Shown here piece by piece: positions 13,132-51,332 of a DNA stretch of 64,000 bases; the first letter of the stretch is position 1, and each line of letters opens with the position of its first letter. The DNA comes from Eledone cirrhosa. Its lineage: Eukaryota. Both the position numbers and the translations under genes were made by a program. The stretch is taken from the NCBI GenBank assembly GCA_964016885.1, contig OZ024740.1:419368001-419432000 (forward strand). Direction: 5' to 3'. The notes under the pieces were generated by a model, which saw only the letters and a program-made list of their open reading frames with translations, was not told where the DNA came from and ran no database searches.

Positions 13132-13205
13132 TATTTCATCTGATGGACAAGCTGGACGTTTCTGTAAGGATCGTTTAATTTCCTGAAACCTTTGGTAATG
13201 GAATA
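13132..13205 (+). ncRNA. Degenerate type-I hammerhead ribozyme motif
   Basis: Stem I TATTTCAT/ATGGAATA (8 bp), core CTGATGG (A9>G), GAAA at 13185, stem III ACC-TTT-GGT, GUA triplet. Stem II is irregular. Confidence 0.5.
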
Positions 13206-13463
13206 ATTATATTGTGTTGTTTATTATGTAATTAAATTATATATATATATATATATATATATTCTTCACTCCTTTATATATATATAATATTCTTCAAAAT
13301 TAATAAATAAGAAATATTATCATAACCAAAGTATATATTTTATACATATTTCAAAGGTACAATATATATATATATATATATATATATATATATATATATA
13401 TATCCAGGGAGTGTAACTTGGAGTTACTGTGTGTGTATATATATATATATATATATATATACA

Positions 13464-13632
13464 CCATATTTCCTGGCATCAAAGGTGCTACTTTTTTCCT
13501 AAAATAAGTCTCAAAAATGTACCATGCATCCTGGAAGCCGAAGGTTGTTTATTATTTTCTTTTCAAATTTTTGGTTGTCAAAATTATGGTGCATCCTCGA
13601 GGACGGAGTGTCTTCGGCACCAGGAAATACTG
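13464..13632. mobile_element. Tc1/mariner-pogo-type MITE in a (TA)n/(TG)n tract
   Basis: Imperfect TIRs CCATATTTCCTGGCATCAAAGG / TCTTCGGCACCAGGAAATACTG. Confidence 0.7.
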
Positions 13633-13659
13633 TGTGTTTGTGTGTGTGTGTGTGTATAT

Positions 13660-14000
13660 ATCATCATCATCATCATATTTTACGTCCGCTTTTCACTGCT
13701 TGCAAGGGTGAGACGGGAATTGATTCTGGCTTGATTTCTACAGCTGGATGCCCTTTCTAACACCAACCTCATTTACAGTGAGTGCTGGGTGCTTTTTTGC
13801 CGTGGCACCTCCACGACCACTTTGCAGTGGAATGATATGGACCCCAGTCCCTGTCATCTCATTTCTACAGCTGAGTAAACTGGAGCAATGTGAAATAAAG
13901 TGTCTTGCTCAAGGACACAACACATCATCCGGTCTGAGAATTGAACTCACAACCTTTCAATTGCAAGGCCAATGCTCTAACCACTAAGCCATGTGCCTCC
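13660..14000 (-). mobile_element. Full-length tRNA-head SINE with RTE-derived tail
   Basis: Near-identical to 41041-41370 (+) and 41675-42024 (-). It has A/B boxes, a CORE-like CCTTGAGCAAGACACTTTA block and a (GAT)n tail. Confidence 0.9.
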
Positions 14001-14294
14001 ATTATATATATATATCCAGGGAGTGTAACTTGGAGTTATTGTAGGTTTACACGGGTGAGCATTTGATGTTGAGGTTGACTTCAGTGTGGAGGTGTAGAGC
14101 TAGACAGAGTGTATTACATTACCATTGTAAGAGGTCTGACGAGCTGCGGATTAGAGTCGGGATAGATCGATACAGATCAAACCTTGAGCTGATCAGTGGC
14201 GACCCGCGCATCACCAACAAATAAACATAATGAAAGAGTAACCAATCGTCCTTATTTTATTTCCCGATATATATATATATATTTATGTATATAT

Positions 14295-14466
14295 ATATAA
14301 GCTTTCACTGTATTTTTGACTAAAGAAATGTTTAGCCTGATAGTGGGGTTTAGAACCCTCAGAGAAATGGAAAAAGATGAGTATTGACGTCAATACTCAA
14401 CTTTTTCCATTTCTCTGAGGGTTCTAAACCCCACTATCAGGCTAAAAATACGGTGAAAGCTTATAT
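14295..14466. repeat. Long near-perfect palindrome with no spacer
   Basis: Arms 14331-14388 and 14389-14446 (one mismatch), centred on TGACGTCA, extended by 14295-14317 / 14444-14466. Confidence 0.95.
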
Positions 14467-14830
14467 TTCTAATTTCAAACTCGCTCACTGTTTCAAAACA
14501 TACTTACGTATATATATATATATATATATTCTTCATTCCTTTATATATATATCATTTTCATTTCAATATAACAAAGTATTTTTACAGTTTAAAAATGTAT
14601 TATATGAGCATTTCATCATAAACTCTTTCTCTAAGACAGGTTTTGTTTCATTTGATGTCTTATTAAAGGGTGGTAGGGATTAGGGATTGGCCATAAGAAT
14701 ATAGGTAAGGGTTCTGGAGTTTTTGGATAATCATAGAAGGGGTTCTTTGACAAAATAAGCTAGGAATCAGTGTTATAACATCAACTCAGTTATGTGGGTG
14801 TGTGTAATTTAAATCTGTAGTATTTGATTG

Positions 14831-14927
14831 ATGCAGGTGTTCAACTGGAGGCTAATGATCTGTAGTGGAGCTGAAGCTGAACTAATCCACTGCGGATTGT
14901 TGCTTGTATCCACTTGAACACCTGCAT
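14831..14927. repeat. Small foldback / MITE-like inverted repeat
   Basis: Outer stem ATGCAGGTGTTCAACTGGA / TCCACTTGAACACCTGCAT, inner stem ATCTGTAGTGGA / TCCACTGCGGAT. Confidence 0.75.
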
Positions 14928-15169
14928 GAAAACTCAGATATATATATATATAATTATTATATACATATTATATATATGGTCTAACCCATGCTAGCGTGGA
15001 AGATGGACGTTAAACGAAGATGATGATCATATATAATAATTATATACATATTATATATATATATATATATAATCATCATCATCATTTTATGTCTGCTTTT
15101 CCCTGCTTGCACAATATATGTATGTATGTATGTGTGTGTGTGTGTGTGTGTGTGTGTGTGTGTATGTAT

Positions 15170-48123: not shown

Positions 48124-48240
48124 TAGTGAAGATATGTAGCTGGTGGTTAGGGCATTTAGTGAAGATATGTGGCCTAGTGGTTAGCGCATTTAGTGAAGAT
48201 ATGTGGCCTAGTGGTTAGCGCATTTAGTGAAGATATGTGG
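48124..48240 (+). repeat. 33-34-bp tandem triplication of a SINE head (A-box)
   Basis: TAGTGAAGATATGT(G)GCCTAGTGGTTAGCGCATT at 48124, 48157 and 48191, partial at 48225. Confidence 0.85.
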
Positions 48241-48436
48241 TTTATTCTCAGTCACTTAACGCCAATGAAAAATGAAAGTGGCGATAAGCACCAGCCTGAT
48301 GAACCTGGCTTGGGATATACTTATTTTATCCTGATAACATTTGAATTTAGATCTTAGAGACATCAGTAAATACTATATGGTATTTAATTGAGGGCTTTTT
48401 TAATTCTGTTATTCCTTTACCATTGCTAATAATAGT

Positions 48437-48620
48437 TTCTGATTTAATCACAAGGTCAGCAATGTGAAGAGACGGGAAAAGTCGATTAAATCAACCCCAG
48501 TGTGTTACTGGTACTATTTTATCAACCCTGTAATGATGAAAGGCAAAGCTAACCTTGGCAAGATTTGAAATAAGAACATAAAGGGCTGGAACTCTATGCC
48601 ATGAAGCAATTCACCACCCT
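48437..48620 (-). mobile_element. SINE (same family as 9065-9195)
   Basis: CTGGTACT..TTTATCAACCCTG..A..ATGAAAGGCAAAG..AACCTTGGC...ATTTGAA. Confidence 0.75.
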
Positions 48621-49247
48621 TTTTATCATTGCTAATAGTAAAGAGTATTATAGTGAACTGAATCAATTCCAGTAAATGACTGGTGTTGATTTAATCATCG
48701 TCAAGAGTTGAGATATAAAGTCCTCATGATTACCATCGTTTTCACACCTACTTTGCTATTCTGGTGTAGGTTAGACTACACTTTTTGAAGCAACATTTTA
48801 TGGTTGGATGTCCTTCTTGGTTCCAATCTTTTTAGTCACCTCCTACAACTTTCATGGATTCGGTGTATGGTATGGTCTTGTAACTCCTGGTGGAGTGGTA
48901 GGGGCATTGTATTGACATATGTCATTCCAAGGGCATTTTATGCCTAGCAGGGGCCCATCCCTCTTCAGGTTTGAATACAGCAGATTTCCTCCAGAGATGG
49001 AGGAAGTGAGGTCTGGTACTTTTGTTTATCAACCTTGAAAGAATGAAAGGCATAGTGTACCTATTGTGGAGAAGAAAAAAAAAAATTAAAAGAACAACAC
49101 TTAACCAGCTCTAAGTAAAACCAATTTCTTTTCACTTAAATATGATACACGAGTTGACTGTCACAAGTATTTAGTAATACAAGTATCATTTGATAAGATC
49201 AAACAATGGAAATAAATAATACTGACACTCCAGTTACAATGCTGAGT

Positions 49248-49983
49248 GTTCCAGTTGATACAAACGATCAACGGAACAACCTTCTCCCACTTATTCCTGA
49301 GAGGGTCATGGGAGCAGAGTCCTCAAACACTCCTTCCAACGGCTCCTGTTAGAAGCAACTGTCTCCAATTGATCCAGCTGGATCCCCAAGCAAGACCAGC
49401 CGAGTGCATGGATGCTGTTGAACTATCTTGTTCAGGGTCTACCCCTGGGTCTCCTGCCAGTTGGTTTTGCCTGTAAAATCTGTCCAGTGATTCCTTCCTG
49501 AGACATTCTAATCCCATGCCTATAGTATCAGAGCTGTGATCTCAAAATTTGGAGAAGTAGCGACTCTATCTGGAGCAACTCTGATTTCCAAGCTACACTG
49601 TCACGGAACAACCTGCTAGTGAAATTAATGTGCAAGTGGCTGAGCATTCTACAGACATGTGTACTCTTAACATAGTTCTCAGGGAGATTCAGCATGACGC
49701 AGAATGTAACAAGAATGGCCCTTTAAATTACAGCTACATCTCATTTTTGTTAGCTGACTGCAACGCGAAATAAAATGCTTTGTTCAAGGATACAACATGC
49801 CACAGGAAATTGAACTCATGACCTTACGGTCATTATAATAATAATGATAATAATGAAATTATTGTGTAAAGTGCTCAGGTGCACTACAACTCGTCAAAGG
49901 TGCATGTATAGTACATAGAATAATATACAAATGTCAGGGAAGTGAATTAGCCAAATACCCTAACCACTAAGCCATGTGCCTCC
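49248..49983 (-). mobile_element. tRNA-derived SINE interrupted by an Expander-like LINE fragment (49283-49602) and an (ATT)n-tailed fragment (49833-49946)
   Basis: SINE head at 49950-49983 (TAACCACTAAGCCATGTGCCTCC). A 12-bp TSD ACGGAACAACCT lies at 49271-49282 and 49603-49614. Confidence 0.8.
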
Positions 49984-50397
49984 ACAATAAATAATACAGG
50001 AAACTATATAAAGGGAGGAAATATTTATGAATTGATACGAGACATTGAAACAGTTATTTTTACTTGTGTTTATTTTTAGTTTTGTTGAATACTATTTATA
50101 GGGATTATACATCTAACTCCACATATATACATACATACACACACACTTATATACATACATATATAAATACATGCATACATACATAGAAAAATGGACGTTA
50201 AACTGTGTTGTACATAAATATGTGTGTATACATAAAAAAGCATGCATACATTCATATGTACATACACACAGGCCCACATACACACACATTCCTAAAAGGT
50301 AAACATTAAAAATGATTATGTATCTACAGATGCGATAGTTTTCTTCTTAATTTGCTTTAACTTTATGTGGCAGGTGTAGTAAAAATTATTTAATTAT

Positions 50398-50648
50398 TTA
50401 ACTCCTTTTGTGACCATATTTCTAATGAAATATACTGTATTTTAATTAATTAATTAAGAATTTGGAAGGATTTATCTTAATTATAATTCCATTATTAAGG
50501 TGATATTTGTAACGTAACTTAACAAAAGATTCTGATATTAAATTATGTTGGAAGATTTGAAATTTAAAAAAGGCAGCTTTAAAATGGATGGTTTTGTTTG
50601 ATAGTACCAGAACTGGGTTTAGGGGCAGTTTGGTATTGAAAGGATCAA
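50398..50648 (+). mobile_element. piggyBac-type MITE family A
   Basis: Homologous to 4320-4559 from end to end. Confidence 0.65.
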
Positions 50649-51198
50649 TTTTGTTGTTTAGCACTAAGTCAGTCTTGATCAATGATATGATCACAGGCAT
50701 TCCATCTGTGACCATCCTGTCATTTTTCTTTCTATTCATACCCAACATTGTTCAGTGTTCCTTTTTTTTTCTTTTAGGAATGTAGGCTATGATGTGAAGA
50801 TTTGGCTGCTATTTCTAGCAGGTTGAGTGACTTCATAGTGGCTTTTTGTATGATTTTTTTATTTTATTTTATTTTAACAGATTGGTTTAAAGGAATTTGA
50901 ATTGTTTTGTTACTCTCTCAAGCTAGAGTTAGCAACAAAAGCCATTTTCAAAAATTCTCGTTCATGTTGTGTAAATATTTTTTAGGTCCACCTGGCTTTG
51001 TGGTTAAGATGTTGCTTTTCAACTAACAGACTAATTCTAAGTAGCCAAATATGGTACAAGTACATGTTACTACCTAACAGACTAATTCTAAGTAGTTATA
51101 TATATATATATATATATATATATATATATATATGTTTGTAAAAGGTAAACAGAACTAACAACACAATCGTTACAGTATGGAAGGGATTAACACTTGAA

Positions 51199-51332
51199 AT
51201 AGCAGGAAGAGGGTCTTAACGTTTTTGACGCTAGTCCTTCATCAGAAGAAAGAATGGGAAATAAGATAAATTGAGGGGAGAGGTGGGGTGGAATTGGAAA
51301 AAATGTCTTTAGATAAAAATAACAGGTCCATT
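51199..51332 (-). mobile_element. Penelope-like pLTR fragment with a mutated hammerhead (51214-51249)
   Basis: Reverse-complement homologue of 39691-39825. Confidence 0.7.

Follow-up and report, generated by a model that had tools for sequence, protein, structure and literature searches.

Why hammerhead ribozyme motifs with unrelated stems should share a mismatch at the pair closing stem II is the question raised by a 64,000-nucleotide stretch of the Eledone cirrhosa genome (the window: C1:419,368,001–419,432,000 of the 3.0-Gb assembly GCA_964016885.1, C1 being contig OZ024740.1). The classic hammerhead consensus has a purine at position 10.1 paired with a pyrimidine at 11.1. An earlier reading of the letters alone (the sequence-only reading) had flagged ten type-I hammerheads in about six stem families, with U·U at 30010, 42358 and 43270 and C·A at 21528. 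These mismatches were seen as described, and the ten flagged motifs sort into six families (A–F). The motifs are real and correctly assigned to Penelope-like elements (PLEs), and the U·U variant is known. They are probably the hammerhead-bearing 3' ends of several PLE families together with likely non-autonomous derivatives, truncated and often inverted in (TA)n, in which U·U is an inherited alternative to G-C that likely permits self-cleavage.

Hammerhead-family sequence is present at all ten flagged sites, at the coordinates flagged. A type-I descriptor of our own, which requires an intact CUGANGA/GAAA/NUH core and stems I–III and leaves the letters at 10.1 and 11.1 free, passes seven of them (21528, 29753, 30010, 35496, 35753, 42358 and 43270), against a mean of 0.01 matches, maximum 1, in 100 local dinucleotide shuffles of the window. 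The core is broken in the window copies at 13132, which reads CTGATGG and has lost A9, and at 39775 and 51214, which read AAAA instead of GAAA and have lost G12; the family states of these copies (F for the first, E for the other two) have the intact core. The ten comprise seven intact motifs and three decayed ones, two of the ten are duplicates, and two motifs of a seventh family (G), which a relaxed scan placed at 31353 and 37154, were overlooked. The insertion carrying 35496 and 35753 is identical at 389 of 389 bases to that carrying 29753 and 30010, and each pair is a single insertion with an inverted end, so that the ten motifs reduce to seven independent insertions in six families. Stems I, II and III with an open stem I, the type-I layout, are present in the motifs tested, and for families A, B, C, D and G folding predicts an internal loop in an extended stem I. 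Rfam models gave no hammerhead match in the window at the gathering threshold; at E up to 1, the best 150 of 324 matches contained nothing but microRNA models lying on (TA)n repeats, a type of microsatellite that makes up about one fifth of the window (13,202 bases masked). The features, in order along the window, are as follows.

13132–13205, plus strand: decayed type-I hammerhead of family F, with A9 changed to G and a damaged stem II, in the repeat fragment 13100–13237
21091–21662, both orientations: family D insertion, sense part 21258–21662 and inverted part 21091–21262, adjoining (TA)n
21528–21606, plus strand: family D hammerhead, C10.1·A11.1, 6-bp stem II, perfect 10-nt palindromic stem III, predicted cut after 21601
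29731–30126, both orientations: family A insertion inside (TA)n, comprising a putative Hydra-clade PLE 3' end at 29807–30126 (plus strand) and an inverted 5'-truncated piece at 29731–29804
29753–29803, minus strand: family A hammerhead of the inverted arm, U10.1·U11.1, predicted cut after 29759
30010–30060, plus strand: family A hammerhead, U10.1·U11.1, near-palindromic stem III, predicted cut after 30054
31308–31358, minus strand: family G hammerhead-like motif, U10.1·U11.1 and U4 to A (CAGA), stems I–III intact, 3' tip of a putative Hydra-clade element
35474–35869, both orientations: exact duplicate of the family A insertion, hammerheads at 35496–35546 (minus) and 35753–35803 (plus), within a ~5.8-kb tandem duplication
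37109–37159, minus strand: family G motif, duplicate of that at 31308–31358
39775–39810, plus strand: family E minimal hammerhead, bulged A, G10.1-C11.1, ACGU stem III, decayed (G12 to A), in a putative Neptune-type 3' end at 39686–39895
42358–42404, plus strand: family B hammerhead, U10.1·U11.1, predicted cut after 42400, within an element 3' end at 42083–42471
43270–43327, minus strand: family C hammerhead with U10.1·U11.1, a further mismatch (C·C) within stem II and an 8-nt palindrome as stem III; predicted cut after 43274; in the non-coding repeat 43048–44221
51214–51249, minus strand: decayed copy of the family E minimal hammerhead, with A in place of C11.1 and of G12, in the repeat fragment 51140–51418

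The ~5.8-kb tandem duplication (27904–31354 and 33745–37155) has unique parts that are 100% identical and microsatellites that differ in length, and is either a very recent event or an assembly artefact.

Comparison of copies across the genome distinguishes inheritance of the mismatch from decay. The purine–pyrimidine pair is kept in families E (G-C) and F (A-U), and is replaced by U·U in families A, B, C and G and by C·A in family D. Exact genome matches to family A (30010) number 10,296 with U·U and 267 with another base at 10.1, with no G-C among 100 listed of the 267; about 2,500 of the 10,296 come from one tandem array (plus-strand excess 2,556). U·U is found in 81 of 85 matches to family B (42358), and at least 20 copies of family C (43270) are identical over 91 bases (40 scored of 826 candidates). 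Family D (21528) has C at 10.1 in 97 of the first 100 listed of 387 matches and A at 11.1 in all of the first 100 listed of 845. As to the canonical families, E (39775 and 51214; 2,662 matches) has GAAA in 96 of the first 100 listed, together with the canonical bulge and G10.1-C11.1, and the 13 other copies of F (13132) that were fetched keep A9 in 12 cases, an intact CTGATGA in 11 and A/U at 10.1/11.1 in all. Since the great majority of copies in families A–D carry the mismatch, U10.1·U11.1 and C·A are inherited family states and not decay, as the sequence-only reading had proposed. Reparsing U·U as a bulge plus a pair does not fit families A–C.

The same reading had called for a genome-wide search allowing any 10.1/11.1 combination, with a tally of pairs. 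This was carried out on a sample of 80 evenly spaced 10-kb stretches (800 kb, large contigs only), which yielded 65 descriptor matches; ten shuffles together gave 1 and the reversed sequence none. The most frequent state is U·U (22 motifs), followed by A-U (20), G-C (7), C·A (5), U-A (3), A·A (3), G·U (2), A·C (2) and A·G (1). Grouped into 20 sequence clusters, the counts are U·U 5, A-U 5, C·A 3, G-C 3 and others 4. Scaling up gives roughly 80 motifs per Mb and roughly 240,000 in the genome, a rough figure.

A second set consisted of 77 metagenome loci encoding Hydra-like reverse transcriptases (RTs), drawn from the best 80 of 479. A hammerhead is present in 57 of the 77, and 67 of 68 motifs lie on the sense strand, with a shuffle control near zero; a few may belong to neighbouring elements. 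The motifs fall into 37 families, all with an intact core, whose 10.1/11.1 states are U·U in 17, G-C in 14 (two with a bulge), G·U in three, A-U in two and C·A in one; hence 17 of the 18 mismatch families are U·U, though their stem sequences differ. None of the 20 loci that gave no match contains a core with one change and intact stems. On a quick RT tree of 57 rows (21 of 78 were dropped for a short match or no adjacent motif; homologues only, without named references), U·U needs 7 changes, five of them forced by well-supported branches, compared with 17.7 for shuffled labels; family A forms a long branch. The tree suggests that U·U has been inherited over long stretches and has switched more than once. 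Beside Hydra-like RTs, U·U is the commonest state and interchanges with G-C, and searches confined to purine–pyrimidine pairs therefore undercount animal hammerheads.

U10.1-U11.1 has been named in print as a natural core variant, among rare variants, and the same text, citing Ruffner 1990, notes that U·U allows more cleavage than any other mispair (Perreault 2011, PMC3088659). It is accordingly an accepted natural exception to the 10.1-11.1 consensus; position and mismatch are the same there as here, but the variant is rare there and is the commonest state here in Hydra-like elements and in the genome sample. In the axolotl, HHR_Amex2 comprises ~60,000 motifs in which U·U closes the base of helix II, and its monomer cleaves 22% in 1 h and its dimer much better (Cervera and De la Peña 2020, PMC7229834). 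Those retrozymes share the type-I fold and U·U with families A–C, whereas families A, B and G occur in protein-coding elements. Family D has in common with the non-LTR (long terminal repeat) retrozymes of that study a tandem non-coding layout, and differs by its C·A, a long loop II and a unit of ~530 nt rather than 170–400 nt; circular RNA is here a prediction from sequence. The Rfam result agrees with the expectation of the sequence-only reading that canonical descriptors would miss the variant, but U·U had already been named, tabulated and shown to cleave, and because the mismatch was known, that reading's main claim is not a discovery.

The closest published elements are the Hydra PLEs of Craig 2021 (PMC8557442), whose File S2 tabulates 25 families, 14 of them with U·U, as 'canonical HHR motifs'; C·A occurs in PLE-X1_cBra, and the passages found in the main text contain no remark on the U·U mismatch. 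Their pseudo-LTR hammerheads resemble those described here in being type-I with a palindromic stem III of ~4 bp, in the (TA)n targets, in the inverted truncated copies and in an open reading frame (ORF) with RWK-like, DKT and CxCx5C motifs. They differ in that no listed Hydra row has U4 to A, and copies per family reach 10,000–20,000 here. The minimal PLE hammerhead has an extra nucleotide between 9 and 10.1 and a highly conserved G10.1-C11.1 (Cervera and De la Peña 2014, PMC4209133). Family E matches this form in both respects, in its palindromic minimal stem III and in its mostly solo truncated copies; families A–D and G differ by the absence of G10.1-C11.1 and a longer stem III. Retrozymes have been derived from PLE ends (Li 2026, bioRxiv 2026.07.22.740005). 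What is new here is the prevalence of U·U in Hydra-like elements, a retrozyme-like family with C·A, a fixed U4A in a young and abundant family, and a large satellite; in the parts of the published record searched, neither a family with U·U and fixed U4A (family G) nor a satellite of at least 320 kb built from the 78-bp family A hammerhead was found.

The assignment to PLEs, indirect in the sequence-only reading, is borne out by fuller copies of families A, B and E elsewhere in the genome, and its statement that no PLE RT/GIY-YIG ORF is visible in the window is upheld: tblastn with nine PLE protein queries gave no match there. Family A copies lie in (TA)n, are 5'-truncated and are often inverted. 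At one locus (L032) a family A hammerhead precedes by ~90 bases a Hydra-type ORF, in three pieces, with RWR, DKT, YRDD, CxCx5C and YIG; the RWK-like, DKT and CxCx5C motifs define the Hydra clade (PMC8557442). Against Pfam this ORF scores E 0.036 for GIY-YIG, below the cut-off, and has no match for RT. It has 1,605 homologues, of which the best 120 are mostly ~700 aa long and include 112 with the RWK-like motif, 109 with DKT and 106 with CxCx5C. By its motifs, a single ORF running from RT to a C-terminal GIY-YIG, hammerhead pseudo-LTRs, (TA)n targets and truncation with inversion, family A is classed as a putative Hydra-clade PLE. In three longer copies of family B (L140, L142 and L146) a Hydra-type endonuclease end lies ~1.9 kb upstream of the hammerhead and continuous with it; only this end of the ORF is seen, and it is 38–41% identical to family A. 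A Neptune-type ORF in L143 was considered for family B and rejected; it belongs to another family and is followed by a U·U hammerhead of its own. Family E has a CX2-5CxxC linker and GIY-YIG upstream of the hammerhead in one of 12 loci (L092), and Nematis has the same linker. These copies point to Hydra-clade parents for families A and B and Neptune-type parents for family E.

Family D is a 531-nt non-coding unit (longest ATG ORF 50 aa) that forms tandem dimers and a trimer elsewhere in the genome. Its predicted circular fold has −128 kcal/mol, as against −101.6 ± 5.4 in 30 shuffles (about 5 standard deviations below). With its short non-coding tandem unit, each bearing one type-I hammerhead, family D has a retrozyme layout. 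An endonuclease in L069 was discarded as its ORF, lying on the strand opposite to family D. Family C has at least 1.3 kb of non-coding sequence with internal repeats upstream of the hammerhead; in the window (43048–45177) the upstream part contains tandem repeats with units a few hundred bases long, a hairpin directly precedes the hammerhead, and no ORF was found. In L057 a Hydra RT follows downstream of family C, but a (TA)n break lies between the two, and the RT is an insertion of its own.

Two arrays were observed elsewhere in the genome. The satellite at C28:30,520,001–30,842,000 repeats a 78-bp unit consisting of little more than the family A U·U hammerhead; it is present in ten of ten stretches sampled over at least 320 kb, amounts to about 4,000 units, is absent at 30.48 and 30.88 Mb, and shows a ~2.77-kb higher-order repeat in L031. 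Retrozyme arrays have been described with at most 300 units (Li 2026, bioRxiv 2026.07.22.740005). Six copies of another hammerhead family, with A-U, occur at 311-bp spacing in L135 (C9:15,000,001–15,010,000), four on one strand and two on the other; this is a classic retrozyme-sized tandem.

Family G combines U·U with a change of the core, U4 to A. As the CUGANGA core is not present, it is hammerhead-like and not a consensus member. Its exact pattern has 19,639 matches, and A stands at position 4 in 96 of the first 100 listed. With an intact stem I required, 144 genome matches have G, C or U at this position, and among 100 listed of these the three bases occur in similar numbers, as later mutation predicts. 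Copies that read CUGA (L315/316 and L318/319) proved to be inversion junctions. The family G endonuclease is found in at least 150 copies at 97–100% identity, 11 of them in 713-aa open frames. All six loci fetched have a 713-aa open frame with Hydra motifs (DKT in five, YIG in five); five have CAGA hammerheads, three of them on both sides of the ORF (same strand, ~3.3–3.5 kb apart), and no canonical-core hammerhead was found near the ORF in these six. In 12 further loci the CAGA motif always lies downstream, in ten at about +920 to +940 and in two much closer, and a position of +189 fits the loss of a 748-nt GT-AG intron. This intron lies between the stop codon and the hammerhead, and both unspliced and spliced genomic copies exist (L323, which is C1:508,001–516,000, L324 and L340). 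An endonuclease upstream of family G in L324 is of a different family.

From its single ORF, Hydra motifs, paired hammerheads and (TA)n, family G appears to be a young, autonomous Hydra-clade PLE, and because it is young its intact stems are no sign of selection. The energy of its hammerhead fold exceeds the minimum by 0.8 kcal/mol. In a pairwise mutagenesis study of a type III hammerhead, variants altered in the CUGA turn were poorly active (PMC9901934), although a U4C viroid variant remains infectious. A literature search for hammerhead and U4A returned no paper, although figures and supplements outside its reach may hold U4A or C·A, and U4A, U4C and CAGA are not mentioned in the main text of PMC11014351 as far as it is available. 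With U4A, family G is expected to cleave weakly if at all, but it has recently been amplified. With about even confidence, we regard it as a young autonomous Hydra-clade element of ~20,000 copies in which U4A is fixed in both terminal hammerheads together with U·U, and which either has an active CAGA hammerhead or has spread with a dead ribozyme. If so, family G makes it testable whether PLEs need their hammerhead, and with canonical, U·U and C·A families in the same genome it provides a panel for the role of hammerheads in PLEs.

The explanation proposed at the outset builds on the observed family states, the RT/GIY-YIG ORF links of families A, B, E and G, the structure of the insertions and the recurrence of U·U across Hydra-like elements. 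Drawing on the known biology of PLEs and retrozymes, the following course may be envisaged. A full-length or tandem source element would be transcribed, and the hammerhead would cut the source RNA, probably as a dimer joined through the palindromic stem III, since the stem III self-duplex is more stable than the hairpin in five of five motifs tested. The unit RNA so released would be copied into (TA)n by the element's own RT and endonuclease, with truncation and inversion, and U·U, the mismatch tolerated best, would stack beneath the core. Most likely, the window's solo copies are inert by-products. Several points weigh against this explanation. A look for RNA from the family A stretch listed no source, self-cleavage of the motifs in this genome is a prediction, and the hammerhead fold lies above the minimum-energy fold by 0.2 to 3.1 kcal/mol in four motifs and by 8.4 kcal/mol in the inverted family A arm. 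PLE hammerheads are weak cleavers in vitro (PMC4209133), and eight of nine predicted Xenopus retrozyme dimers gave no product (bioRxiv 2026.07.22.740005). No ORF could be linked to families C, D and F in the loci examined. Pairing at 10.1/11.1 in the genome sample is loose, with A·A, A·C and A·G also present and G-C in only seven of 65, which could reflect relaxed selection. Finally, family G was amplified despite its core change.

The last point leads to a different explanation, in which the variant hammerheads are retained for their fold, as a signal for binding of the RT, recognition of the 3' end or dimerisation; they would cleave little or not at all, and catalysis would be dispensable. 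Family G speaks for it: the 713-aa ORFs are intact and copies are 97–100% identical, yet the hammerheads of all full-length copies read CAGA, a turn in which mutants of the type III hammerhead had low activity (PMC9901934), and the element contains no canonical-core hammerhead. Naiad PLEs, moreover, thrive without canonical hammerheads, which the authors suggest may parasitise PLEs (PMC8557442). Against such a role, the core is intact in 37 Hydra-like families, and their sole frequent mismatch is the one best tolerated for cleavage; one U·U hammerhead, that of the axolotl, is proven to cleave (PMC7229834), and none of the 20 metagenome loci without a match had a core with one change and intact stems. 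We consider dispensable catalysis unlikely, though a serious possibility.

It is very improbable that the mismatch families constitute a separate hammerhead subclass that has gone unrecognised, with a junction geometry or cofactor of its own. U·U and C·A do appear repeatedly in stems of unrelated sequence and are not confined to one clade, as in the Neptune-type ORF of L143 followed by a U·U motif, and C·A is the leading state in three of 20 families in the genome sample; but U·U and G-C swap repeatedly within one lineage, G·U states are present, the remaining core features are standard, and U·U has already been described as a tolerated mispair (PMC3088659, PMC7229834). Chance folds, or canonical hammerheads that decayed after insertion, are next to negligible as a general account. 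Stems form easily in AT-rich DNA, and three of the ten flagged motifs (13132, 39775 and 51214) are indeed decayed copies. Shuffle controls near zero in the window, the genome sample and the metagenome loci stand against it, as does the mismatch in the great majority of family copies, and the copy counts refute it for families A–D.

Apart from the hammerhead families, the window contains two copies of a long interspersed nuclear element (16602–19139 and 22355–25617), 95% identical and with endonuclease and RT frames, which we take to be RTE-like. A 175-aa frame at 1294–1821 presumably represents a fragment resembling a hAT-type transposase.

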